DNA of 63,861 bases, filler included, from Rhabdomonas costata (taxonomy: Eukaryota), in the NCBI GenBank assembly GCA_019059605.1. It is 40 parts of 40 records of this genome, joined end to end, with 100 filler letters (N's around TTAATTAATTAA, not from the genome) between each part and the next. Parts side by side here need not be neighbours in the genome. Positions count along the whole stretch, not along the records: positions 56,197 to 57,701 come from JAHMHO010014288.1; positions 57,802 to 59,306 come from JAHMHO010014289.1; 38 more parts are not named here. One strand, written 5' to 3'. Below, piece by piece: positions 142-59,136 of this stretch (position 1 is its first letter; every line of letters begins with the position of its first letter). A model generated the notes under the pieces. That model did not search any database. It saw only the letters and a list, made by a program, of their open reading frames with translations, and was not told the DNA's origin. Both the position numbers and the translations under genes were made by a program.

Positions 142-1508
142 CTGGAATGACGAATTCGGAAACCCTAAACCCTAAACCATGATTACCCAACCCTAAAGCA
201 TGATTACTCTCCACGGTCGTTCATCGGGGACAACTATCGAGCTCGTAAAACGGAGGGGGACGCCTGCAATATCATTATCATCATCACGGGCAGTGTTCAA
301 TTCACGAAGACGTGCGAAAGCCTAAATGCAACAGTTACGTACAGTGTACAGTCTCGCACCAACAAAACAGTTGCTGTGAAGACAGATACGTTAATACGAA
401 CGCAGTCAAAATTCCCTCGGTGCGGGGCAAGAGCGGCACTTGAGCGAGCCATGCTCAAACAGAAACCAACATACTCAGGAAAAGTTGTGGCGATGTGCAC
501 TTTGAATGCTTTCTTCATCAGTCATCAGTCATCAAAAAGTGGAAACTGGATGAACAAAAATCAATCTACCAGGGATAATAGCATTGACAAAGAATACCTT
601 GCAGATCATGAAGGCACTTCACCAAACGGTCGGTCGCTTGGCGAACTGACCACGGAGCGATGTACAATGATCCACTCTGCGAAAGACAATGTTCCCGCCT
701 CACAGTTTGTACAAAACAGCATAATTGACTATCTTGCGACGATATGGAGCGAGCACTCTGAGACGAGTGGTGAGGATGTGAGCCATAATCCTGGAACTAC
801 CTCATCCTGCAAATCAGCTCTCCATCCATATAAATCCCACCCCAAATCTCCCGGTTGCTGATACCTTTTCCGAGACGGTGTGGCGACTATTATCATGAAT
901 TGCTTTCAATATGGTACTGAAACATACACACACATACCCAAACACGCCGAGAGGCACTGCAACATACATCACCGTGAAAAACACCATAATTCACACCTGG
1001 AGAAGGCGTGCTGACCAATGTGAACACCACATCTGTTCCTCCGCTTCATCTTCAGGCGTCAGTTGAGAACCGGAGCGACGGAGGATATCTCCGCAATGCC
1101 CAAACGGGGCCATCCACCAAGGGGTTTGACTAATTTTGTGCTCAAGGGAGGTGAAATCTCCACAGCCGCAGTCGCGGTACTGTCGCATATCAACAACCTT
1201 CAGAAAAGGTTCCTCCACGCCCATTTCAGCCAGCAGGCGTCCAACTACACTGCAAAGAGCAATCAACTCTGTCTGTGCAGAAACCGGATCATGGATACAC
1301 AGACTCTTCAAAAACCGCACAACATTTCTGAGAACCACTTCTGCGCTGTCAGGCACAAGAACCAAAGCCTCCGAGACAGTCTGAACAGCGGAATGGGTGG
1401 AGGCAGAAACCGCGGACTGGCTATGCACGTCGCAGAAGAAAAGCTTCGCACAGCTGCTCAGAACGCCGTCCTTGGGAGAGGCGGCTTGCTTGTCCAAAAA
1501 AAAACAAC

Positions 1509-1608: not shown

Positions 1609-2490
1609 GGGGGTTTGGGCCATGTCCCCGGGGTACAACGTCACAGGCAGGGACTCCCCGGTCAGAGCGCTCTGGTCCACGTCGAGTTGCCCATCGTTGA
1701 TCCCGCAGTCCGCAGGAATCGCAGAGCCCGCCCCAAGCATCACCAGATCCGTGGGCACCAGAAGCGTGGCATCGATGGTCTGGAACTTCCCGTCCCGCTT
1801 CACCGTCGCAGTGGGCTTCAGAGAGGCCTTCAGCGCCGCCACCGCATTGCCCGCCTTGCACGACTCGTAGAACCCAATGCTGGCGTTCAGAAACTGGATC
1901 CCCAAAAGAATGCCCACGTCCATCCAGTCCTCGATCGCGGCCTCCACTATCACAGCTAGCCACAGCATGCACGGCATGGGCTGGTACAGCAGCCGCAGGA
2001 ACACCAGCCACTTCGGGTCGGCTTTGTCCTCCAGGCAGTTGGGGCCGTACTCCCGCAGCAGTTGCTCCGCCTCCGCCGTGGTCAGCCCCGTGGCCTTCGT
2101 GAAGGTCACCTTGTCCTCGTGGTCGGAGCCCTCGTCCTCCTCCTCCTCCGGCGCTGCCGCAGGACCGGCAGCGCCCTTGTCGGGCCGCGGGAGCGAGCGG
2201 CGGGAGGACATGCTGCGCTTGATCTCCCCGGTCAGCACCCCGTCATGCTGGCGGGACCGCACCGCGACGTCGACCCGGGACTTCGTGCGCTGGACTGGCT
2301 CCAGATCTGCAGTGGGGGTGGCATGCCCAGCCGTCCGTAAGGGAACCGTCATGGCCCGGTGGATGTCGCTCTTGCCTATCCCAAACCTGGAGGCGGGAAA
2401 GCTTGTGGTCCGCTTTCCTTTTCGGCCATCGTCCACCGCGCCCTCGTCGGAGAACCCTTCGAGGGACAGCACCCTCTCCTTTCCGGACAT
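1609..2490 (-). CDS. PMA: Plasma-membrane P-type H+-ATPase (P3A), N-terminal part, truncated by contig end
   Basis: GLTTAEAEQLLREYGPN, two TM segments, KAGNAVAALKASL, KRDGKF, IPAD, VDQSALTGESLPV (TGES actuator motif); uninterrupted ORF. Confidence 0.93.
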
Positions 2491-4688: not shown

Positions 4689-5275
4689 GCAAGAACAACA
4701 AAACCATCAGCCACCACACCNNNNNNNNNNNNNNNNNNNNNNNNNNNNNNNNNNNNNNNNNNNNTTAATTAATTAANNNNNNNNNNNNNNNNNNNNNNNN
4801 NNNNNNNNNNNNNNNNNNNNGGTGTTGGTTTAGACCAGGCTCGATCCTTCGGTGAAATGAGCGGGCCTGGTCTAAAGCAGCACTATGCAGGGTTGCATAC
4901 ATCCAACAAATGGCCCTTCCCAGGCTCCTTAAAATATGGCGATATGGTGAAGTCGAAGAACTCGAAGTCTTTCAACGGGCCAAAATAAACCCTTAGGACA
5001 CCGAATTGGGCGAAATCATGCTGCCAACGGCAGGGGGGGGGGGTGCTAATAAACTCGGAGTACCACCATCATTCTAAGGATGGGTTGGACCAACCGACCG
5101 ACCACTTAAGCCCATGTTATGCTAGTGCCAGGATTCCGGTCCGGTCGGCTTTGGTCCTGGGCATATGTTGCGAAGGTTTGAGCGGACTGGTGAGATTGGG
5201 AGGCGGGCAAGACCGGACTGGAAGACCCACTCCCCAGAATCATATGGAGCGATGCTTGCAGTATCCCGTGCGCAC

Positions 5276-5492
5276 CCCGCTTGGCGGATTTTGATGGTGT
5301 CCAGCACTCCGGCGCAGGCCAGCTGGGCCATCACCTGGCCACCGTGGAAATGCCCAGGGCTCTTGCAGCTGTGAGGCTTAATGCAGCGGATCCAGTGCGG
5401 GTTGGTGGTTCCGATGCGCTCCATCAGTGCCCGCAGAGAGGTGCGGAAGATTCCCCCCACAGTGGCCCGCCGTCTGCCCTTCGCAGAAGGCT
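5276..5492 (-). CDS. Myosin motor-domain exon
   Basis: TVGGIFRTSLRALMERIGTTNPHWIRCIKP...QLACAGVLDTIKIRQAG matches the myosin PHFIRCIKPN / QLRxxGVLExIRI motifs; AG and GT boundaries present. Confidence 0.9.
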
Positions 5493-6867
5493 CTGCGCAG
5501 TGGAAGAGCAGGGTTGGTGAACTCGTAGAAAGCGAACAAAAACGGGCAAATAAAGCAGGTAACAACCCAACAGCAAGAGAATGGTGCGTACGAATTCTGA
5601 ATTGAAGTTTTTTATGGCGACTTTCACACAGCTGGCTATTTTGGTGTGGGTCATGTTGGTTTGACCGATAAATTCAGGTTCTGTGTTTACAGTGTAACCT
5701 GCTTTAGCAAACAAGGCCAAATACAAAACTTCTCAGGCAGGTCGGATGCAGGTGCTTCGAACCAAGCAGGCAAGCGGGAAACTTCTCTAGTCGAGCCACA
5801 TCTACGCTTGAGTCAAGTAACTCAGGAGCTGCTCCCAGCACCTCCCCCTTAAATCCCCCACTTCTTCCCCGAATACTGCAACGCAGAATATACCACCTGG
5901 GCCAGCATTCACTCTTTGTGTTTATTTGACCCCAAAACACAATCCTCAAGTGAGATTTTGTTAGCACTCGGCATAATTGCAGCGGTCCTGAGATGCTTCC
6001 ATTGGACCTCGCAAGCTCTGAGATTTACCGCAAAGATTTCGTCCATCGACACAGCAACCAATCCTTTTATGACTTCAGTCAGTTCGTAACTCAGCACTTC
6101 CCACCACCTGGATGTTTCCTGGTAAATGCTTTCAGGTCTGGGGAGGGGCTCTTGAGTAACGGCAAACTGGTTTTAGGGTTCAGGGGGTTTAGGGTGAAAA
6201 TTTATTTCACACTTTTCCCAGCTTGCGTCCACGGACATACTCTTCTGCAGCGGTGCAGCGGTTGAGGAAGTTGTGGACGCAAGCTGGGAAAAGTGTGAAA
6301 TAAATTTTCACCCTAAACCCCACAACNNNNNNNNNNNNNNNNNNNNNNNNNNNNNNNNNNNNNNNNNNNNTTAATTAATTAANNNNNNNNNNNNNNNNNN
6401 NNNNNNNNNNNNNNNNNNNNNNNNNNGGTTTGTAATAGAGTGCGGTTACATGCCTGTTACCATCGATCACTTCGGGGGTTCTGTGGGTTTTGTGGGTGTT
6501 GGTGAATGCAAACTTAGCGGTGTCCGTCCGTGCTGACACCTCACGCATACAGTTGCATGCGGCCCTGCGAGCAGCGAAGTTCATTCGCACGTTTGTTGTT
6601 TCGCTGATCATGTCTCTTTTTGCGGTTTGAGGCCTTTGCTGGAGGGAAAGGGAAAGTCTGGAACCGCAACCACCGCAATGCAAAGAAGCAGCAGGGGATT
6701 CGTTCAACGTCTTTCAGCAGCATTTGAGGCAAAGGTGGGCAGGAAGGAAACGAATGAAAAAACGCCTCCCATCCAGCTGGAAAATGAGAACTCATGCAGC
6801 ACCAAAAACAAAGTGATTTAAGCCCGGAAAGCAGAGCGAGCGGAGGTTGCTTCTTGCTGTGTCGCAG

Positions 6868-7469: not shown

Positions 7470-9850
7470 GTAACGTTTTGCTCTGTTTTGCCTGCGGTGT
7501 ATAGTTCTTGGTCGAGATGGAATTGTTTGAAAACATGAAATTTGTTTCTAATAATTTTGGGTATTGTCAAAGTGTCGCAGAGGATTTCACGAATGTGGCA
7601 CGACAAACAAATTACAAAAAACGCAATGCCACGAAGTTACAAGGGAATAGGCATGAGATGGATGGAATGGGTTTGAGGCTCAGTCGCCAAAATGACTGTC
7701 CAGGCGTGCCGCGGTTAGCGGCTGCTGGAGTTCAGGGTCTTCGCAATGAGAACAAGATGTACGGTTGATAAAAGGGGAGTATAGGGAAAGGGAGGATTGC
7801 TGACCCCCCTTGCTTAGCTCCGTGTTTTGAGGAAAACCATCATTACCGTGAAAGCCCGTTTGCAAGGGACATCACCAGTCCTTTTGCTATGCTGTAGTGC
7901 TCCCCACGACGTAAGTCTGCGCCACACACCACAAACNNNNNNNNNNNNNNNNNNNNNNNNNNNNNNNNNNNNNNNNNNNNTTAATTAATTAANNNNNNNN
8001 NNNNNNNNNNNNNNNNNNNNNNNNNNNNNNNNNNNNGTGGTGGGTGTGGGTGGGGTTGGTGGGTGGGTGTGGGTCCCATGATTCACATGGAGAAGGGAGA
8101 GTGGATGCAAATGACGATGTGGGTGTGGAGTGACCAGTGAAAACAAGTTCCCCTCATTGAATCATGCATTATAGAATTCGTTGAAGGGCATTCGTTGAAC
8201 GACAGAAATATTTAACGTTAATTGCCGGAGAGAGCAGTGCTTCCGCAAGGCTACGCTGCGTTTGTTGTTGTCCCGTGGCTGCGGCGTCTCTTTCAATGAC
8301 ACATGCACACAACACACTCGCTCAAAGGTATCTTGCCATTGGGATGCTAAGCTATTTTCTCGACCGCAAACGAAACGGCCCATTCACCACTCAAACCAGA
8401 TTTAGCAAATGAAATTTCCAAAAAAAAAATTCAGCAAATGACATTTTCCGAGAGAGGCCCTCCCGGCGCTACAATGGCAATCGTATTGTACATTTTCTCG
8501 AAAATGAAAACATCCGCCCCGGGCATGATATTAAAACTGAAAAAGCATGGGAAACTTCCCAACCACTTTTCTGCTTTTCTTCTCTTCTTTCCTCACCCAT
8601 TTCACATCCCTAGCTGGGGGTGCCGTGACAAACGGAGAGCGCAGGGCAACCCGCCTCCAACCTCCTTCCCATACATCCTGCACCCTGTTGAAGGAGTTTC
8701 TTCTGAAAAAAACCTGTAACCTTTTACATTGTGCAATGGCAAACCCGAGGCAACGATAAATGGACACAGGTGGAGGGTGAAGTTTACAGAGTCGTGCGAA
8801 AAAAGTGTGCTTCCTCTGAAGCTCTGAAGGAGCACAAACAAACAAACAGGGGACAACGTTTCCGGGTCCGCGCGTTCCATTAGGCCGTGGCTTCCACCCT
8901 TGTGCGTGGTTTTGTGCGAGACCCTCGCCAACCTGAGCCAGCCGGCCGCCTGCGGGGGCTCATGGAGGAAGGAAGGTCCCCACCCCCACTGGCATTGATA
9001 GGCTGAGTACTCACCGGGAGGCTCCGAGACCGGCGTGATTGGGCCAGCCTTTCTCTCTCGCTGGCAGGGTACATGTCTTTGCGGCCATGCTCGAAGGAGC
9101 AGTGTGGCGGGCGAGGCCCGTGGGAGGAGTGACAGACCTGCCCGGGAAAGAAGAAGCAGACGGCAGGGTGGCCGTGAAAAACGACCTGTGCGCGTCTCTG
9201 CTTTGGCCCGGAGGAGAGCGAGCATACTGTCCGCTAGGAGCTCACCGGCAGCTGTCTTTCTTTCGCTTGCAACGCGTAAATCTATCAAACGCTCGGCTCC
9301 ATCGATGTTCCCTCTTCCCTCTTCGCGGGCGCAGCAAAGAGAAGGATCACCCAACAGTATCAGCCATACAAACCTCAGCGGACAATGGCGACCCCCCCCC
9401 CCCGACACTGCCGCAGCAGAAGTCTGAAGATGCCCAAAAGCTTGCTGCATAAACTGATAGCTTTCCAAAATTCATATCTTCCATTAACAAAACTTGGGAA
9501 TCCCTGTCCTTCCTCCAGCAGCCCCCGGCATGCGGTGCGGGGNNNNNNNNNNNNNNNNNNNNNNNNNNNNNNNNNNNNNNNNNNNNTTAATTAATTAANN
9601 NNNNNNNNNNNNNNNNNNNNNNNNNNNNNNNNNNNNNNNNNNTTTATTCCACCCACCCACTCACTCACGTGGAGGGGGGGGGGACGGGGGCGGCGTCCGA
9701 GGCTTGTGAGAATCCCTGAGATCTGTGTATACGATGTGGTCTAATCGCTTGGCTCGAGAATAATCAAGACAGCAGTCGGCGTGCTTCCTATGGGTGGAGA
9801 GTAATTCGTCAGGTTTGACCCCCCCGCTTGACTTGGACGGCTGCTGGTAG

Positions 9851-21730: not shown

Positions 21731-23465
21731 GTAATTCCTATCACCACCACCACCACGCACGCACGCACGCATGCACACACACCTCCTTTGTAACTGTGTA
21801 CTGCTGTCACGAATGAAGGTTTGTGGTAAGAACATGCTGTTCTAAGACGGCAACCGAAGCAACCAACCACTTTTCAAACAATATGGAAGGGAATGAGGTT
21901 TTTGGGTGTGCAATCAAGGATTTAACAAACATCAACCTCCGTGAAAGCAGTTTTATGCTGGAGCTGCTTTCTTGCTTCTGCTGCGGGCAATAAGCCTTAT
22001 TGAACCAGAAGAAGCTTACGGACGCTTCCCTTTCGAAGAAACTCTTTCAGCTGTGACTTCCAACGGAAAGGGCTGGTGATGCTGGTACCCGTAGAATGCA
22101 TGTGGAATGCCTTCATTTGGTTTTGCGTGTGTTTTCCTTAGGTTCAGTTTGAAACGATTCTCGCCGCGGAGGGCCGAGAGCGTGGCCGCGTCCCGCTGCT
22201 TCCGGAGCTGTCCCGAAGGCTCTCCTCAACCAAGCTCGCCGCGGAGCTGTCCTCTCGTGTGTGGCGCGCACGAACGGATAAGTTCGAGGGGGGGCGCTTT
22301 GGGTATCTGCTGAGAAAGGGGTGGTCAGTTCAGATCCAGAGCAGCGAGAAGTGAGGTGGGGAAGGTTGCTTTGGTGATCCCAAACAAAACNNNNNNNNNN
22401 NNNNNNNNNNNNNNNNNNNNNNNNNNNNNNNNNNTTAATTAATTAANNNNNNNNNNNNNNNNNNNNNNNNNNNNNNNNNNNNNNNNNNNNTTTTGGGTGT
22501 GGTTTGAACTTGCCCCTTCATCGGGCCCCCTGGAACCTCACGAATAGTGGGAGAGCCTACTGGGTCCTGGGTCTTGGGAAGGTGCAGGACCACTCATTTC
22601 GGCTCGAAACGTGACGAGATTTGATGGGCGAGATGCCTCATGGTCACTTCCGGACCAGAGCATGTTAGACCTCAGAAAAGAAGCCCGGGCCCCAGTTGTG
22701 GCGTTGTGGCGTTGGGGTTAATACTAATTAATAGTGCTTATTTGGTGCAATGGTTATTCTTTGGCTTTTTGCTTGGCTCGGAACATTATCTACAGCCCTG
22801 ACCAGGCCTCGTTTCTACAACATGGAGGATACGCATATGGAACACGCATATGGAGGATACACATTTGCTTGATGGCACTGCTTGATGGCAGTAGTGCCGC
22901 AATAAAACTTCGGAAGTTCTATGTCCTTCGTCCCGAAAAGTTGGACTGGTGGTAAATGATATGGTGCGACACTCGCACGAGTATAGTTACAGCTGGGAGG
23001 ATCAGTTTTTCCCTAAACCCATCCTCCCGCTTTCTCTTCACAACACCACGGCTTTGAAAAGTGGTTAAAATCCCCTGCGTCCACTGCAGTCTGGGCTTTC
23101 CACACAGACTCATTCCCGCCATGCCATAATACGGCCCCTTACGCCCCCACTCCTGTTGCTTCTCCACCCCTCTGCATTGACCGCGAGACCTGTGGGTGCG
23201 CTCCTATGGTGGGGCCTTACCTCACATACCCCCACAGAGTTTCAGATCACCAAAGGCCCCTCGCTGCGTTGGCGCACGTCATTCCGTCCTGCAAACCCTC
23301 GCTGTCCTTTCCTTCATTCCATTTTTCTGGCTGCACTCAACGTCGGACAACATGTCACGCGGAACTTCTGCTTAAATCATCTTTTGGGACTTATACTTCC
23401 ATGCACTTTCTCTCTGTGCCTCTGTCTTTTTCTGTTTACGTGGTGTGTCGATGTATGCCGTGTAG

Positions 23466-23565
23466 GATTCCGAAGGGACAACCTGCCCTCCATGTTGCCG
23501 TCGTCAGCAGCAGAACGGAGGCCGTGGATGCCCTACTGGAAGCGGGAACCAGCGCTTCCATTGCG
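23466..23565 (+). CDS. Ankyrin-repeat exon
   Basis: GQPALHVAVVSSRTEAVDALLEAG fits the ankyrin consensus; AG/GT bounded. Confidence 0.7.
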
Positions 23566-24237
23566 GTACTTTGTTTGTGTTTGTGTTTGCAGCCTGACTC
23601 CCTTAGCATGGAGCATAGGGTGGGTTGTGTCCTCGCATCTTCGCAAGACTTCCCCACCCCCTTTCTCATCTGTGTATGTCACCGCTGCATAGTCGATTCC
23701 CTGCAGCACATCAATCCCAACAGTCCACACAGATGTTCTCAGTATACAACTTTTTTGCGATGGTTCCCTTCAGAGCTCGATTGTATATACATGGCATACC
23801 TCGGAATCCCGGCCCAGGGAAGTTCAGTGAGAAACCAGAAGGAATCACTGAAAGCGACCACTTTTAATGCACAGTAGGAGTGAAAAAATGGGTCAGCGTC
23901 TCAAGGGTTTCTACGTATCTGCACAGACGAGAAGTCTCCCTAACCCTAAGAAAGTTGCTGCCCCACCCCCGCACGTGCATGGCGCCACCACCCCCCNNNN
24001 NNNNNNNNNNNNNNNNNNNNNNNNNNNNNNNNNNNNNNNNTTAATTAATTAANNNNNNNNNNNNNNNNNNNNNNNNNNNNNNNNNNNNNNNNNNNNAATT
24101 GAAAAATGGGATGGTGACTAAGATGAAGTGGGAAAATCCCGTTTTCCGGGGAACGGTTGGCGGTATCACAATGCAACAAGAGGGAGGTTATGCGAGGAAG
24201 CGCTCTGTGGATATGTGGGATGGGGGGCTGTGCGCAG

Positions 24238-28912: not shown

Positions 28913-29630
28913 GTTGTGTGTGGCCTGACACTTCGTTCTGCTGGTGGGGCTGAACCATCGTCGACCCCATCCTCATCTGGTCCTTCTCCCGCATCTTCAT
29001 CGACATCACCCTCACCCTCTGGTAACATTCCCACTGGGTATAACACCCTTGTTTCGTATGGGATTAGATCACTTGAATGTAACACTGGATGCGCTCTCCA
29101 CCGCACTTCCTTAGGAATGTCTAACAAAAAGGTCGTGTCTGTAATCTTCTTGGTGATGGCAAACGGTCCCACGGCCTTTGGCATAAGCTTACCTGGTGGG
29201 CCTCCAAACCTCCCTTTGTAATGCCTCCTCTTCCTGATCAACACATCCTGACCCACACAGTGCTTGTAATCTGCCCTCTTGCGATTGGCATATGCTGCGG
29301 CCTTCTGCTTTTCTCTCTCAAATGCCTCCCCCACCTTCTTCCAAATCGCCTTCATTCTCTTGACCTGGTACCTCACTGGAGCTCGCGCTGCTCCTGGATC
29401 TTGGTCTGCTGTATCTAGCAGATCCCACCAAAACACTGGATGATACGCGTCGTTGAGGTAGAAGGACTGTACTCAGTGTTTGCGATGGGGGCACTGTTGA
29501 TCTCAATCTCCAACAACACCAAAAGGTCCATCCAACCTGTTCCAGGATACGAATACATCAGCGTGGTCATCACCTGATTCATGGTCTAATTGGTTCGCTC
29601 TGCTTGTCCGTTGGTCTGTGGATGGTATGG
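28913..29630 (-). mobile_element. Degenerate Ty3/Gypsy LTR-retrotransposon integrase C-terminal half
   Basis: YHPQTNGQAERTN*(TAG), then TEYSP with a frameshift to FYLN, VGQDVL, KLMPKAVGPF (GPY/F motif) and HPVLHSSDLIPY. Confidence 0.9.
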
Positions 29631-36527: not shown

Positions 36528-38861
36528 TTGCGGGGACCCCCTGAGCCACAATAAAGGAGTGCCTCCCATAAATGCACATAGCGCACGCGGAGGCGCCAAA
36601 AGAGGCTACGATTGGCAGCGGGGGAGGCATTCATCTTCACCTCTTTGACTTTTCATTCAGGAAACAACTAGACAGTTGGGAACGCAGCGCTAGAAAGCAA
36701 AGAAAAAAGAGCAGCCGCAACGTACTTTGAGAAGTCAGAAGTGGGAACGCTCGGACCCTGCGAGGAAAACCAGAGGGAATCCCCCCCTCAATGTTAAAAA
36801 CAATCATGTTCCGTTTCGGCAAGAAAACCCCCAACCCNNNNNNNNNNNNNNNNNNNNNNNNNNNNNNNNNNNNNNNNNNNNTTAATTAATTAANNNNNNN
36901 NNNNNNNNNNNNNNNNNNNNNNNNNNNNNNNNNNNNNAGGGAATTCGCAGAGGGAGAAAGTACGACAGTCAGAGAGGACAAGTTCTGATTTTGTGGCTGG
37001 GGGTTCTTCCTGCCTGTTTCAAGGTGTGGGCTTCGGCTCAAACCCAACACAGAGGAGTGTTGGCATCAACCGCAAGGCCCTACGTCATGGACAATTTAGA
37101 AGAACAACGGTGAATTCGACCGGTGGAGCTGATGGGCACCAACAGACGTCAGCTCCCGACCTCCGGTGACAATCTCTGGCACAGATGCTGTTGCGGCCCA
37201 GGAACCCCCCCTCTCCCGGCCGCAGAAAAGGCCAGAGAAGAATAGTAAGGAAAGAAGTCGACCCAGTATATGGCTTTTCAGCATCACCACTTCATAAAAA
37301 AGAACCCGCATGTCGCACTGTCGTTGATATGGGGGGGGGCTGCACCTGGAGAGGATGTTGAGTCCCAAGGAGATAATTTTGTCCACAGGTTCCCACACGA
37401 ATACCAAGAACAACATCAGCCCTGAAGCAAACCACCGCACCGGAAAACCAAATGGCCCCATCAGACTTCACGCTGGAGGGGGGCGGTAAAACAAAAAAAC
37501 CCTTATCTCTGAATGTGACTTAACATTTCGCTCCTAACCAGCGCTGCTCCTCTGGGATTTTGGGAAACACAGCCCACAGCCCGGCGTTTCGGGACAGCCA
37601 GGCCTGCGCCAAAACTCACTGATCGACCTATGTCACGATGCGACGACAAAGGCGGACGGAGGCTTACACGCGAGTTGTCAACACGGCTAACAAAGTCTTG
37701 CATTTGCCAGTCAACGGCTGTGGCTTAAGCTGCATGTTTCACACATATCTCGGGTTCCATTCAGATATCAAAACGTTCGACTGGCGAAGGATGCACACAC
37801 GCTATTATTCAATACAAGCGATTGGGTCAGCAAAAATTGATACCCCACACACCACACACAAAGACAAGAAGAGAAAAGAAGAATACCGATTAGCACGGGC
37901 CGCCTCGCCGTAGCCTCCAAATGAAATCCAAAGAGGTTCATCAGCACATCAGAGGTGTTGACCCACTTAAAGCAGTACAGCAACAGGGTGATGGACGACA
38001 TACCGATGGTACACTCTTTCCTTGGAACACACACACACATGAGAAAAGTGTCACCCACTTACACATGTCCAAGAACCGTCACACACTAGTGCGTCAGCCG
38101 TGCGAAAGCACGCCAGGCAAGAGAGGCAAGAAAGACCCTTTTCGGAGATGCGTCCAGGAAGAACGGCATTCGCGAGACATTCAACCACTCTGTGTCGTGT
38201 GCTGTTCCACTGGTGCCCTGGCATACGTGATTTGGAGCAAACCCACCCAAGTGTGCTTAAGTCTGATGATTTTGACGTCTTTCAGCAGGTCCCACCGGGT
38301 TCCACCGGCCGGGCCAATGGTCAGCAAAGACTGGGTCCTGTGGCCCGGGCTTGCGGTGCTCCATTGGTACATATGTCTCGAGGCTCGGTTCTCGTGGCTC
38401 AAGGTACGGTTACCACTCGTAACAGAAAACTGGCTTAGTTTTTNNNNNNNNNNNNNNNNNNNNNNNNNNNNNNNNNNNNNNNNNNNNTTAATTAATTAAN
38501 NNNNNNNNNNNNNNNNNNNNNNNNNNNNNNNNNNNNNNNNNNNCCGCTCGCTCTCCTGAGCCGCGGAAGGACACGCACGCGCAAACAGAAGTTATGTTAC
38601 CGTGTCTGTCCCGTCCGCTTTGTCCCCGCAGGTGACTGCTTTCTTTTGACATCGATAAGCCTCCCTCTGCGACGTCCTAGCGGCATACGCAAAGGCTGCG
38701 GAGTGTGCTGAGACGCGCAGCGACAGATAAGAGCATACGGTGGAAGACAAAAATTTGTGGTGGGGTACTCCTTTCTTTCGCCGCGCAAAGGACCTCAAGC
38801 TGCTTTGAAATGGGGTAGACAAACGCAGCGGGAAGAAAATGAGAAAGGGCGCATATCAACA

Positions 38862-39501
38862 CCTGACCACTCGCGCGGTATTGCGCGAGCTTCTGCATGT
38901 AAAGCTCCAGCAAGGCCTGCACACATTGTCGACGGCTGCTCGGCTGCGAGGGAAAGAACAGAGAGTACCCGTAGCGGTAACGGACCGTGTTCGCGATAAA
39001 GACCCAAACTAACACACATGATAATGGTGTCTGGAGTGTGGTAAGGAAGGCACTATCCCGAGCAAAGTGGCGCGTGCTGCACGGTGCAAAAATGGTGTAT
39101 ACATTGGCGCCTAGAAACTCCGAACACATACCATAGCACCTGCAGAAGGCATCCGGATTGGATAACTTGAAATCCTCTGATCGGCTTCGCAGGATGCTGA
39201 CTCCCTCATTCTGGGGGGGGGATACTGTTTCAGTATTGACAGTGTTGTCCCAGAGGAAACGTGTCTCACAATCGGCCCCAAAAGTTCTCCACAATGGAGC
39301 GATAGGAGAATCCAGGTGAGAGAAGGCGAGAAGGGGTTGGGGAAGGGGGCACGCCCATGCCTCTGGCGGCTTGCCCTCAGAGACGCTGCTGTTACCATCG
39401 GAGGAGGAGGAGGAGGAGGAGGTCTCTGCCTCCGTGGGGTCCATCTGCAGTGCCTCGAAAAAGCTATCCACCTCTTGCAGGATCACCACCACCGACTCCA
39501 C
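38862..39501 (-). CDS. Exons of an uncharacterised gene
   Basis: Acceptor gctcAG before VESVVVILQEVDSFFEALQ; long open frame ending at a GTGTTG donor near 38861. Confidence 0.35.
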
Positions 39502-39751
39502 CTGAGCGACCAATCATATGATATAACCATTCATAGATTCATTGACATGGTCATGAGTGACGTCATTGGTATCGTCACTCAGAAATGACGTTTTTTGTTT
39601 TGGGCTGTCAGACTGCTACATTGCACTTGGACTGAAGTTAGGCGGAGAGTTTGTCGTTGGCTTTCTTCCTCCGTTTTTCGGTAGGATGTATGTACGTGGT
39701 CCGATTAAATTGCTCGTCACCCCTCCTCCCTTTGGCGCGGTTCCCTGGCAG

Positions 39752-55204: not shown

Positions 55205-55602
55205 GGAGTCCCCCCTAACCCGCAAAATCTTCTATTGGAATCCCAGGGGACATGTGCATCGCATTCTAACCCCATGCAAAATCATCCTTTGGAGTCACAG
55301 GGATTCCAATAGAAGATTTTGCGGGTTAGGGGGCGATGCACGTGTTCCCTGGGATTCCAATAGACGATTTTGCGGGTTGGGGGGCGATGTACGTGTCCCC
55401 TGGGATTCCGATAGACGATTTTGCGGGTTGGGGAGCGGTGCACGTGTTCCCTGGGATTCCAACAAACGATTTTGTGGTTAGGAGGAGATGCGCCTGTTCC
55501 CTGGGATTCCAATAGAAGATTTTGCAGGGGCTTAGAATGCAATGCACGTGTTCCTTGGGACTACGATAGAAGATTTTGTAGGGGGTTAGGAGGCGATGCA
55601 CG
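55205..55602. repeat. About 51-bp minisatellite array with an internal orientation switch
   Basis: Units starting ctgggattcc at 55349, 55400, 55451, 55501; opposite-orientation units at 55205-55281; each unit contains a GGGTTAGG-like core. Confidence 0.92.
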
Positions 55603-56196
55603 GGATGAAAATGCAGACTGACTCTCACAAGTCTTACGCTTCTCTGGGGGGTCTGAGGGTTATGTACATGATGCTGTGGACCACAAGGAGTTTGTCTTGC
55701 GTCCGAGAAAGCAGGTGCTGCACCTTCTGTGATGTGTTGGAGCCTTCCTCAGTGGTTGGGGGAAATTTTTTTGGGGAAATCTTTTCACTACCCGTATTAC
55801 AGGTGGGGGCAACAAAATGTAATATATACACGCAACCACAACGCACACATTCAATGATTCTGCATCATCCACCTCAAAGCACAAGCTCAGAACAGCTCAG
55901 AGCAGCAAACAAAGGATTTGCGGCTGGGCGACTCTGGTTGGAAAGACAAAAAAGGACACCCCCTATCTCTCTTAGCTGGTGTGGCCCGCGGTGAGCTCCT
56001 TCATCGCGCTCTCATATGCCGCGACGTACTCTGGAAGGCTGCGATAGGGAATCTTGCTCCGCGCGAACTGCCCTGTGCCCTTGGCCAAAACCACCCNNNN
56101 NNNNNNNNNNNNNNNNNNNNNNNNNNNNNNNNNNNNNNNNTTAATTAATTAANNNNNNNNNNNNNNNNNNNNNNNNNNNNNNNNNNNNNNNNNNNN

Positions 56197-56562
56197 AAGG
56201 TAACTGCAGCAGAGGTCAGAGCTTTTAAGGCTATGCGCAAGAATGGTCGCAGTTTTGCCGAAATAGGAAGGCTGAAGGGCAGAAACCGCACCACTGTGCG
56301 GCGTTACTGCACTAACCAGCTTGTTCCAAAGCGATGTTTGAAGACCCGAATTATTCAAGCTATCAAAAAGCTGAGGCGCAAGCTTCCTCTACGAAGGAAG
56401 ATTGGATGTGAGTTGGTCGCAGCTGAGGTTCGAATGAGCCGTCAGCATGTTTCCGCTGTGATGAAGGGGCTTGGGATGGTGGATAGGAAAGAGAAACTTT
56501 GGCTGCACCCAAATTCTTATGAATACGGGACACATGTGTACTCCCAGGCACGCAGTCAGTGA
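56197..56562 (+). CDS. Small basic HTH protein upstream of the transposase (frame open back to the contig start)
   Basis: KVTAAEVRAFKAMRKNGRSFAEIGRLKGRNRTTVRRY is a transposase-type HTH; a second HTH-like segment is IGCELVAAEVRMSRQHVSAVMK. Confidence 0.7.
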   Translation, partial: KVTAAEVRAFKAMRKNGRSFAEIGRLKGRNRTTVRRYCTNQLVPKRCLKTRIIQAIKKLRRKLPLRRKIGCELVAAEVRMSRQHVSAVMKGLGMVDRKEKLWLHPNSYEYGTHVYSQARSQ

Positions 56563-56652
56563 ATTAGTTGACGTTTTTTCCCACTGCATTGGAAAGAGGA
56601 GATGATCGCGTCGCGTGTGCACACCAATTGCTTTTCTCTTCTTTAGCTTTTA

Positions 56653-57678
56653 ATGGCACTTTCAGAGCTCATAATTGGACGTATTCATGGAGAAGCAAAC
56701 CATAAGTCGCTTAACTCCCTTGCTAAGCAGTATGGATGCACATGGAGAACCATTCAACGGGCAGTTAACTACAATGGCCGCTCACATCGTGCTCCTCGCT
56801 CTGTGTCTTCCAGTATTTTCTGCCGTCGGCAGAGAGTTAAGGCGCTTGCAAAAAAGAGAGTCACCCTGAATGGTCGGCGCTATCCTATGCACAGTTCTGC
56901 CAGTTCAATTCAGCAGGCCCTCAAAAAGGAAGGTTTTTCCACCTCAAAAGCCACAGTTCTGCGGGACCTGCATAAGGCAAAGCTGTTCTGCCGAGTTCGG
57001 CGTCGTGTTCCGACCCGCGACCCGGTTGTGATTAACAAGAGAAAGCAGTTCTGCTGCGCCTGGGTACGGAGGACACGGGACTTTAAAAGGCTGGTGTTCT
57101 CCGATGAGCACACTGTTTCCATCAATGATCACACATCTAGGACTATGTGGGTGGATAAGCATGAAGAGGTTCTTCCTCGAGAGAGACGCCGGCTGCAGAG
57201 TGTTCCGCGTATTATGGTGTGGGCTGCTGCCGGGGTGGGTTTCAAGTCTTCTGTGGTCATGTTTCCTGAGCAGACATCTGATGAGGACGGCAATCGGCGT
57301 ACATTTCGCCTCAATGGGAATGGTTACATACGCCGTTGCCTAGGGAGCATTACAGCGGCTCTTACACTGCAGCGCCGTATCTTCCAGCATGATGGAGCGA
57401 AGGCTCACCAGAACAATCTTGTCCGAGAGTATTTTTCCAAAAAGGGTGTGGACTACATTACCGATTGGTCACCATACTCACCTGACTTGAATCGCATCGA
57501 GCTTCTTTGGCCACTGCTAAATCAGTTGATTGCTGAGCAGCATCCAGTCACAATGTGTGAGCTGCGTGCAGCGGTTAAGAAAGCATGGGATAGAATTCCC
57601 CAGAAAACCATTGACGTGATTTGCAGCGGTTTTGAATCAAGGCTCAAGAAGGTATTGCAGAGAGGTGGCCGTTGTTGA
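56653..57678 (+). CDS. IS630-Tc1-mariner transposase, intact, DD35E
   Basis: N-terminal HTH (SLNSLAKQYGCTWRTIQR), VFSDEH, IMVWAA, IFQHDGAKAH, WSPYSPDLNRIELLW; 35 residues between the second D and the E by hand count; intronless, 341 aa. Confidence 0.95.
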   Translation: MALSELIIGRIHGEANHKSLNSLAKQYGCTWRTIQRAVNYNGRSHRAPRSVSSSIFCRRQRVKALAKKRVTLNGRRYPMHSSASSIQQALKKEGFSTSKATVLRDLHKAKLFCRVRRRVPTRDPVVINKRKQFCCAWVRRTRDFKRLVFSDEHTVSINDHTSRTMWVDKHEEVLPRERRRLQSVPRIMVWAAAGVGFKSSVVMFPEQTSDEDGNRRTFRLNGNGYIRRCLGSITAALTLQRRIFQHDGAKAHQNNLVREYFSKKGVDYITDWSPYSPDLNRIELLWPLLNQLIAEQHPVTMCELRAAVKKAWDRIPQKTIDVICSGFESRLKKVLQRGGRC

Positions 57679-59136
57679 TACGTTTGCGGCTTGTACTGCA
57701 TNNNNNNNNNNNNNNNNNNNNNNNNNNNNNNNNNNNNNNNNNNNNTTAATTAATTAANNNNNNNNNNNNNNNNNNNNNNNNNNNNNNNNNNNNNNNNNNN
57801 NGGGTTGGGGTGTGGGGACCCTGTTCTCCGAGGGCGGTTTTTCCGGGCGGTGAACCGCCTGCTGTGCATATCCGTGTGTGTGGGTGTGCGTGTGTCGTAG
57901 ATGAGCTCGTCAAGATGTAGAAGCTAGAGCCTTTGTTTCTTTGTTCGTAATGTCTCTTAGAGCGCCCTAGCGACACGGGCTGTGCGTTGTCACATCGCCT
58001 TGTCCGTGGCCTGTCCACATTACCCAGGCACTCGCTAACACCACCAACCCAAGTTTGCGCGAGTGTTCCGACTTTATTTGTCTCCTGGTGTTCTATTTTT
58101 CTTCTTCTCACCTCGCTTGCTTTGCCGAATCCTGCACGGTGCTGACCTTGTCTTCTTCGGTGACGTGATGTTTTAAAAAAAAAAGTCTGCAGAAGGTCCA
58201 TCCAGGACTTTTGGTGGACCTCGGCGCCTTGTTGTGGACGCAGCGGTCCACCACAATGGAGGTGGGCGAGCTCCTGTAGTTTACCTGAAACCAAGCAAAA
58301 AGCTCGGTAGCGGAGCTACGAGATCGGGGTGGACGTGTCCACCGTATGTCCTCTACCAGCTGCCTGGGGGCAGCACCACAAAATCTCTCACCGATGAGAA
58401 AAGTTAGATTTAAAATTAGAAAATATGAAACCTCAGTTCTTCTTTTGCAATCCCAGCAGTAGTGCTCCATCTCCCTGCAATTTATCTAAAACACCACAGA
58501 GCCAAAATCCTTACTGGTTTCTTTAGATAGAAAATTCACTTGCAGGAGGAAAAAAAGCAGGAGGAAACAAATACTTACTGCGCTTAAAGTTTTTTGCGGC
58601 TATTTTTGAAAATGCAAACGGTCCTTTCTCACAGCACTGGTCGTTTCTACCAATAGTTTACCTCCCAATTTGCAGAGTATGAAAGGAACTTCCCGAAATA
58701 CCTGTGGTGTCTGTGGCTATTATTGTCCTGATTGCTGTTAAAAAAGAGTTTGGTTCGCAAACTTTTGTTTCGCACATGCAAAGTCAAATCTTTTCACTTG
58801 ACCAGTGTCCCCAAACAACCCCCCTCTCGTTGCCAGAAACGGGGAATGACCAAAAAAAAATGTGAGAAGGGGCGGGCGAGGATGTGGAGACGTATGGATC
58901 GGAGAAGAGCGAGATAAGGTGGGAGCTGATGGATGCGAGATGCCGGGTTTGAGTTGCGGCGTTGAGCAAGAGGGCGTGAGAGCAAGGGCAACTTAAAAAA
59001 ACTGGTTTGCCACTCGCCAGATTCGGCAAAGGATACGAAGGAAGACAGGATGCATAAGAGACGCTCTCTCGGAACTGGGTGCGTAAAAGGAGGCAGCACT
59101 GTCTGTGACGACACATGTGTGTTTTGAGGGGTTTGT

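Follow-up and report, generated by a model that had tools for sequence, protein, structure and literature searches.

Tc1/mariner elements are the textbook one-gene transposons, and the question raised by the locus described here is whether one of their lineages carries a second gene. The locus lies at positions 56197–57701 of a stretch of 63,861 bases filed under Rhabdomonas costata (assembly GCA_019059605.1), to which we refer as the window. It holds, on the same strand, a small open reading frame (ORF1) for a helix-turn-helix (HTH) protein and, downstream of it, a complete transposase gene (ORF2). We read this contig as most of one copy of an undescribed clade of two-gene, Tc1/IS630-type cut-and-paste transposons, an explanation to which, taken as a whole, we give a probability of about 0.6. 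Judging from the sequences compared, what would be new here is a clade of Tc1-like elements that have conserved, ahead of the transposase gene, a second gene for a paralogue of the transposase limited to DNA binding. The features on which the argument turns are the following, with the remaining ones given further below.

56197–56562, plus strand: ORF1, a very basic protein with two HTH modules, 121 residues seen; the 5' end is cut by the contig edge and the stop is TGA 56560–56562
56563–56652, plus strand: 90-nt spacer between ORF1 and ORF2, with two extra in-frame stops (TGA 56569–56571 and TAG 56644–56646)
56628–56646, plus strand: pyrimidine tract (16 of 17 positions) followed by AG, at 6 nt from the ATG of ORF2; it is a candidate 3' acceptor for cis- or trans-splicing
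56653–57678, plus strand: ORF2, a complete Tc1/mariner-type transposase of 341 residues with a two-part HTH (helices at residues 5–38 and 53–108) and an RNase-H-like catalytic domain
57103–57105, plus strand: codon of catalytic D151
57391–57393, plus strand: codon of catalytic D247
57499–57501, plus strand: codon of catalytic E283, 35 residues after D247

The downstream gene

ORF2 encodes a complete DD35E transposase of the Tc1/mariner type that carries a two-part HTH domain. An intact DD35E transposase with an HTH of its own had already been described in an earlier note on this DNA, which had also given the 90-nt gap correctly. The protein scored above the Pfam cut-offs for both HTH_Tnp_Tc3_2 (36.2 bits, cut-off 31.5, residues 75–138) and DDE_3 (31.7 bits, cut-off 28.6), and the triad D151/D247/E283, with a spacing of 35 between the second D and the E, is invariant when the window protein is aligned with 19 relatives. 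Its AlphaFold2 (AF2) model, with a predicted local distance difference test (pLDDT) score of 83.9, has two HTH modules followed by an RNase-H-like domain, and by Foldseek it matched Sleeping Beauty (E 6.4e-12) and full-length Mos1 (E 1.4e-10). The same two transposases were reached by the family profile, which matched the catalytic domain of Sleeping Beauty with an E value of 1.3e-25 and Mos1 with one of 2.7e-8. The NCBIfam model for IS630 (NF033545) aligned over nearly its whole length, with 67.2 bits (E 1.6e-18) against a cut-off of 100. ORF2 has therefore the features of the IS630-Tc1-mariner (ITm) superfamily, i.e., a DDE triad in an RNase-H-like fold and an N-terminal two-part HTH, and falls outside both the strict Tc1 family (DD34E), because of its spacing of 35, and the IS630 family as delimited by NF033545, because of its score.

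A word-indexed search gave 75 relatives with E ≤ 0.001 among 3461 candidates. The window's own protein was absent from these 75, and the closest relative was 63% identical. Nearly all of them come from contigs of 1–3.6 kb in ENA, JGI and Logan. A UniRef or nr source was lacking for all 69 relatives with more than 27% identity, and the first match that carried an organism name was a Tc1-like protein of Chaetomium at 27% identity. No relative was found in prokaryotic genomes (185,579 species), and the search of viral contigs gave none either. As far as these sequence searches reach, the family is known only from environmental contigs.

The catalytic residues are much better conserved in this family than the distance between them. 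The D-D-E triad is kept in 65 of the 66 relatives with at least 300 residues, the exception being P0044, which has M at the position of the E. Of these 66 relatives, 34 have 35 residues between the second D and the E, 17 have 38–39, nine (all of them distant) have 34, three have 33, two have 37 and one has 32. Since the spacing varies from 32 to 39 within the family, the label DD35E is correct for the window copy, yet it is no stable mark of the family. The 17 transposases with 38–39 residues (P0011, P0013, P0014, P0017–P0019, P0021–P0026, P0029, P0031–P0033 and P0045) form a sister clade, with a value of 98 in the Shimodaira–Hasegawa-like approximate likelihood ratio test (SH-aLRT). The longer spacing is due to a short insertion, and the N-terminal motif is kept, so that the D-E spacing shifts inside one family.

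The upstream gene

The earlier note had also listed 56197–56562 as a separate HTH frame. The open frame stands, down to its TGA, but what had been taken as its beginning is the edge of the contig, because the element occupies a single contig. Approximately four codons are missing at this end, since the relatives have M-T/A-R-A/P ahead of the K-V-T with which the window contig opens. The 121 residues that can be seen are very basic (pI 11.4, with 31 K+R), and the GC content at third codon positions (GC3) is 0.51 in both ORF1 and ORF2.

When 1.84 billion representatives were searched exhaustively with HMMER, ORF1 had 11 matches at E ≤ 0.001. Six are small proteins of 105–193 residues (P0098–P0103), with E values from 3.2e-36 to 3.9e-8 and identities from 60% to 37% over the matched stretches. 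The other five matches cover short HTH stretches and not the whole ORF; they are a protein of 1564 residues (matched in three stretches, the best of 43 residues), two multi-HTH proteins, a resolvase-type protein and P0107, an HTH protein of 119 residues. In the same exhaustive search no fused form of ORF1 and transposase was found at the genomic level, and a profile search for extra ORF1 relatives returned three, all among those found before. The small relatives tend to share their end: four of the six terminate at the position of the second TGA of the window, P0098, P0100 and P0102 closing with Q-G-W-C and P0099 with Q-G-W, while the tails of P0101 and P0103 are divergent. The stop of the window ORF1 comes three codons earlier than that of the relatives, and the residues G-W-C are missing.

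With Pfam, ORF1 gave matches to HTH families only (HTH_31, HTH_38, HTH_23 and HTH_28), all of them below threshold, and the NCBIfam model for IS630 matched weakly along its N-terminal 119 positions (E 0.034). The AF2 model (pLDDT 77.2) has three-helix bundles at residues 4–38 and 48–92 and a disordered tail from residue 97 on. The helices of the first bundle (4–15, 20–27 and 31–38) can be set beside those predicted for ORF2 (5–14, 20–27 and 31–38). By hhalign, the whole of ORF1 is colinear with residues 2–145 of ORF2, with a probability of 86.5% and an E value of 4.5e-6, at an identity of 11%. These protein comparisons present the product of the gene as a very basic protein of about 125 residues, with two HTH modules of three helices each and then a disordered tail. 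At the level of the protein, ORF1 is a separate gene, which we read as an old, diverged and stand-alone duplicate of the DNA-binding domain of the transposase.

Probable association of the two genes

An indirect indication that ORF1 and ORF2 belong together is the presence of the same pair of genes on what appear to be single contigs of other samples. P0098, an ORF1-like protein, and P0079, a transposase of the cluster of P0001, are both on an ENA contig of 1857 nt. Similarly, an ENA contig of 1971 nt has the ORF1-like P0111 and a transposase broken into two halves (P0076 and P0077), and an NCBI/JGI contig of 1962 nt has the ORF1-like P0102 and the transposase P0003. We compared the 11 entries of the ORF1 family with 49 transposase entries, jittering the sizes of the ORF1 contigs, and three same-source matches arose by chance in 0.015% of 20,000 trials.

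A quick maximum-likelihood tree with 67 rows groups the window transposase and P0001–P0004 in a clade of five rows, with an SH-aLRT of 99. Two of the partnered transposases lie on either side of the first split of this clade, and thus the pairing of ORF1 and ORF2 looks ancestral to its five members. The identities for ORF1 and those for the DNA-binding part of the transposase were, respectively, 59.5 vs. 60.7%, 37.2 vs. 51.7% and 40.6 vs. 49.7%, i.e., ORF1 has diverged in step with that part of the transposase and somewhat faster. Further away, a metagenome scan with very general patterns gave distant loci with up to 34% identity over the longer matches, and no ORF1 relative was present in the 80 distant Tc1/IS630-like metagenome loci among the matches listed. 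Related elements from environmental samples seem to share the pairing. The two-gene element that the earlier note had proposed is upheld by the six small relatives (four with the same end), the hhalign result and the three contig pairings, and we consider it highly probable that the contig represents such an element, with a separate ORF1 protein.

The pyrimidine tract and the expression of ORF2

Just before ORF2 there is a pyrimidine tract ending in AG, located where the earlier note had placed it, 6 nt ahead of the ATG. The tract itself, TTGCTTTTCTCTTCTTT, is at 56628–56644 (16 pyrimidines in 17 positions) and the AG at 56645–56646. With both strands counted, 119,922 nt of the window contain six tracts of at least 16 of 17 pyrimidines directly before an AG, and this is the only one that has, no more than 60 nt downstream, the ATG of an ORF of at least 100 residues. 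For a given gap of 90 nt, we estimate the probability of finding such a tract by chance at roughly 0.005. The contig has eleven ATGs ahead of the start of ORF2, which under the standard scanning model makes leaky scanning unlikely, so that ORF2 most likely needs a messenger RNA of its own. Its start Met falls in the same column in all 20 aligned sequences, that of the window included, and the motif that it opens, M-T/A-L-S-E/D-L-x-I-G, recurs even in the DD38/39E sister clade.

Seven relatives have ORFs that were called with N-terminal extensions ahead of the conserved Met. In four of them (P0086, P0006, P0011 and P0036), F, L, S and P make up 50–69% of the 16–20 residues before the Met, against a family background of 22%, a composition that can be taken as the signature of pyrimidine-rich DNA. 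The upstream extensions of the ORF1 relatives P0099 and P0098 look similarly pyrimidine-coded. A conserved pyrimidine tract ahead of each cistron is thus likely, and we give an even chance to the tract and AG before ORF2 being a splice acceptor. The search of the window for a short kinetoplastid spliced-leader motif gave one match at chance level with one mismatch, that for a short dinoflagellate motif gave none, and the Rfam scan gave nothing at gathering scores. The predicted RNA fold of the spacer was no better than that of its shuffles (z +1.06).

The same tract might act without any splicing, as a core-promoter or other regulatory element, and the pyrimidine-rich stretches ahead of ORF1 in P0099 and P0098 fit one such element per gene. 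However, the tract ends exactly in AG, close to the ATG as described, it is similar to the acceptor of a myosin exon in another contig of the window, where a pyrimidine tract runs up to CAG, and a promoter lying within the 90-nt spacer would leave almost no 5' untranslated region. We consider this explanation unlikely, and it is the one that survives best among the alternatives.

A different use of the same AG had been put forward in the earlier note, in which a cis-spliced intron removes the stops and a fusion transposase with four HTH modules is produced. ORF1 and ORF2 are indeed in the same frame, with three stops between them (TGA 56560, TGA 56569 and TAG 56644). In-frame joins to the AG at 56646 that are free of stops do exist, for instance from a GT donor at 56536 (111 nt) or from the GC donor at 56548 that the note had proposed (99 nt), and ordinary introns are present in at least part of the sample, as seen in other contigs. 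Against the fusion, the tail of ORF1 that lies 3' of both donors (V-Y-S-Q-G-R-x-Q-G-W-C) is conserved as protein in four of the six relatives, and the start Met of ORF2 and the motif after it are conserved as described above. A GC donor is, besides, a poor match to the usual splice donors. With its own tail conserved in one gene and its own Met in the other, a constitutive fusion is quite improbable and we do not favor this model, although an occasional alternative splice that joins ORF1 to ORF2 is possible.

Ends of the element and origin of the contig

What can be seen of the element is exactly one piece of 1505 bp, 56197–57701, bounded by artificial linkers and without flanks, and for this reason the ends of the transposon are not visible. 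The relevant features are:

56097–56196, no strand: artificial linker (44 N + TTAATTAATTAA + 44 N) that parts the element contig from an unrelated one
57679–57701, plus strand: 3' tail of 23 nt up to the contig end, reading ...GTACTG and then CAT
57702–57801, no strand: artificial linker to the next, unrelated contig
1509–1608: a further example of the linkers

What might pass for the right end of the element is a contig end, 23 nt past the stop codon, and a terminal repeat is not demonstrated there. The right end of the contig reads CAGTA in reverse complement. A Tc1-like CAGT end within the 3' tail is possible, if unproven, and there is no adjacent TA. The last 45 nt of the contig have no inverted copy anywhere in it, and the comparison with the first 520 nt, gap and ORF1 included, gave a best local score of 13, against a mean of 14.8 for shuffles. 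A left terminal repeat inside the gap, which the earlier note had named as the case that would undo a two-gene reading, was searched for and not found. The full size of the element is probably less than 2 kb.

Several observations weigh against a two-gene element with a spliced second cistron. As neither terminal repeats nor target duplications are visible in the contig (the left end and the flanks are outside it), we can only infer that ORF1 is inside the element. The co-location in other samples is deduced from an equal count of nucleotides and a common source, and not from the DNA of close relatives; a partner was absent for eight of the 11 ORF1-family entries, and 10 more clusters gave none. 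Foldseek found nothing at E ≤ 0.001 for the ORF1 model, its top rows including the DNA-binding domains of the transposases IstA, SETMAR-TIR, Mos1 and Tc3, and the best rows of VIA-align (IstA with Z 7.7, the two-part domain of Tc3 with Z 6.6 and Tc3A 1–65 with Z 6.5) have middling values, in a range common for helical folds. The ORF1 of the window, with its start lost at the contig edge and its conserved G-W-C tail absent, may be slightly decayed. Concerning the tract, the residues upstream of the Met in P0239, P0029 and P0015 are only 26–40% F/L/S/P and weakly pyrimidine-coded or not at all, and there is a bias in this kind of evidence, since frames stay open more readily through pyrimidine-rich DNA, free of stops. 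Finally, the tract could be a promoter element instead of an acceptor.

If ORF1 were foreign to the element, it would be the remnant of a neighboring or nested transposase, or a host gene beside one insertion. That terminal repeats are not seen, that the ORF is cut by the contig edge and that it resembles the DNA-binding domain of a transposase are all consistent with such an origin. Nevertheless, its relatives are small complete ORFs with a common end (the strong matches all have 193 residues or less), three of them co-occur with diverged relatives of the transposase in other samples, and no end-like sequence was found in the gap. The identity of 11% to the ORF2 domain also argues that ORF1 is not a recent truncated copy. 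We find this origin quite improbable, and hold to ORF1 being a gene of the element.

The whole contig might also be an artefact, i.e., a chimera of amplification or assembly, or else a contaminant. The window is made of about 40 pieces of 1503–1510 nt, sorted approximately from larger to smaller, and of a final one that the window end truncates to 1245 nt, all of them joined by linkers of the composition given above. It looks like a bin of unplaced, unlinked contigs. The piece at 56197–57701 has no physical linkage to any other, features that cross linkers are artefacts, and the window may mix organisms. Most of the contigs have a G/T-rich stretch at their beginning and a C/A-rich one at their end. 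The sequence of an 18-nt amplification primer matched three contig ends with two mismatches each (0.09 expected), and we take these stretches to be the primer tails of a whole-genome-amplified library, although this is unproven. The element contig is free of such tails (0.4 and 0.4), and hence it is bounded by assembly breaks. In favor of an artefact are the assembly in pieces of about 1.5 kb, mostly with tails of this kind, and the GC3 of 0.51 in the element, very different from the 0.84 of an H+-ATPase gene in the window. However, the pair of genes seems to be present again in independent public assemblies, which speaks against a chimera, and contamination would alter the host and not the element. 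An artefact is very improbable.

That the contig is a single long ORF in which stops are read as sense (a Blastocrithidia-type code) is hardly credible: NCBI table 31 does give one open frame of 501 codons, but the four in-frame stops are all at the ORF ends of the relatives or in the unconserved gap, with none within the 121 + 341 conserved codons, the conserved Met comes after the gap, and the ATPase ORF and the myosin exon of the window are open under the standard code.

A model for the proposed two-gene element

In the two-gene element that we favor, the proteins of ORF1 and ORF2 would be made separately, given that ORF1 has its own conserved stop and ORF2 its own conserved Met. The tract with its AG would most simply be a 3' splice acceptor that places ORF2 first on a message, and its 5' partner could be either a spliced leader, as in one of the two models of the earlier note, or a cis donor located upstream of ORF1. 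The ORF1 protein is predicted to bind the ends of the element, or subterminal sites, and in this way to tune transposition. By analogy with the DNA-binding-only products of bacterial insertion sequences, it might act as a competitor or repressor; by analogy with the ORF1 of PIF/Harbinger, it might act as a recruiter. Taken singly, either direction of the effect is doubtful.

More speculatively, and we think this unlikely, the clade could be a Tc1-like lineage adapted to hosts with spliced-leader trans-splicing, such as euglenozoans. The element would then be a small operon with a tract and AG as acceptor for each cistron, and its first cistron would be an end-binding regulator derived from the DNA-binding domain of the transposase. 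Concerning recent activity, for which the earlier note had cited the intact frames, the argument holds for ORF2 and fails for ORF1, devoid of its G-W-C tail, and a search for further copies within the window left this as the only one visible.

Should the model be true, its consequences would go in several directions. If the host is a kinetoplastid, this would be the first Tc1/mariner-type element there. If the pyrimidine-AG signals are trans-splice acceptors, we would have a DNA transposon that fits its gene layout to polycistronic hosts. And a compact clade with a second gene would be a natural case of a transposon that encodes its own end-binding partner, or its own brake, which bears on the self-regulation of Tc1/mariner elements and on the engineering of Tc1-type vectors.

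Other contigs in the window

Some of the remaining contigs have recognizable contents. At 5269–5496 (minus strand) there is an isolated myosin-head exon, with a match of 76 residues to Pfam positions 546–621; a pyrimidine tract with a final CAG lies before it and GTGCGC after it. No myosin match was present in the 19 remaining frames of at least 25 codons on that contig strand. We take it as an ordinary spliced exon, and spliceosomal introns are accordingly present in at least part of the sample. At 28915–29472 (minus strand), a fragment of a long terminal repeat retrotransposon is present as an ORF for the SH3 domain found in Ty3/gypsy-type integrases (SH3_Tf2-1, E 2.5e-11). With these two contigs, both unlinked to that of the element, nothing speaks for the trypanosomatid framing of the earlier note.

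The region 1609–2490 (minus strand) encodes the intron-free N-terminus of a P-type H+-ATPase that runs off its contig, with a GC3 of 0.84; close before its ATG there is a short pyrimidine run, and an AG is contiguous with the ATG. Positions 1–57, at the beginning of the first contig, are 9.5 copies of GGGTTA, a telomere repeat of the TTAGGG type. The unrelated contig before that of the element has a tandem repeat of 51 nt (55300–55602, 5.8 copies, 80% matches). Four open frames of 230–289 codons had no Pfam match (8605–9471, minus strand; 23017–23874, plus strand; 38680–39513, minus strand; 169–858, plus strand) and could be lineage-specific genes or chance frames in GC-rich DNA.

Comparison with known systems

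A narrow literature search, in sources available in part, gave no two-ORF Tc1-type element with an upstream HTH gene. Two surveys set the context: one of 2021 presents Merlin as the first DNA transposon reported in kinetoplastids (PMC8101967), and one of 2024 lists Tc1/IS630 members across kingdoms, one of them from Bodo saltans virus (PMC11544213).

The element resembles the Tc1 family (Tc1, Sleeping Beauty) in its transposase of about 340 residues, with a two-part HTH and a DDE catalytic domain, and the catalytic domain of Sleeping Beauty is the best solved match to ORF2 by both sequence profile and fold. It differs in the spacing of 35 instead of 34, in the second, upstream gene and in the distance to the nearest named protein, that of Chaetomium, at 27% identity. 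Bacterial IS630 elements (DD35E) have the same D-E spacing, and their NCBIfam model aligns with ORF2 nearly whole. They include members with split ORFs, in which the upstream ORF carries the DNA-binding domain. Here, in contrast, the downstream ORF keeps a complete DNA-binding domain, and the two ORFs are parted by three stops and 90 nt instead of overlapping at a frameshift site.

Traveler (DD35E/TR) shares the spacing, a transposase of about 340 residues and two HTH motifs. It is a vertebrate family with a single ORF, so far reported in ray-finned fish, frogs and squamates only, and with short terminal repeats that end in CAGTC or CAGCC (PMC7093834). Compared by description only, the element differs in having two ORFs and a right end of CAGTA, which is not established as an element end. 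With spacings of 32–39 within the present family, the spacing alone is no proof of kinship to Traveler. Multi-ORF relatives within the ITm superfamily are described from ciliates, namely TBE, Tec, Sardine, Thon and Anchois, which measure 3.6–6.7 kb or more and have three to four ORFs, among them those for a tyrosine recombinase or a zinc-finger protein, or others without a known function (PMC7325037, PMC3464196). They have in common with our element an IS630/Tc1-type transposase accompanied by extra ORFs, and Sardine and Thon are called DD35E in those texts. Here, however, the transposase is accompanied by a single small HTH gene, the element probably measures less than 2 kb, and ORF1 matches HTH families only (Pfam, NCBIfam), the accessory ORFs of the ciliates having been compared by description.

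PIF/Harbinger offers a parallel in function, in that an independent gene for a small element-encoded DNA-binding protein is also located beside that of a DDE transposase. PIF/Harbinger elements need the ORF1 DNA-binding protein besides the transposase, and the ORF1 protein of Harbinger3N_DR binds the terminal repeats and interacts with the transposase (PMC2836001). The likeness is one of functional analogy only. Their transposase belongs to another superfamily, their ORF1 is Myb-like, while the one described here matches HTH_38, HTH_23 and HTH_31 and not Myb, and the PIF transposase is devoid of a DNA-binding domain of its own, whereas ORF2 has one.

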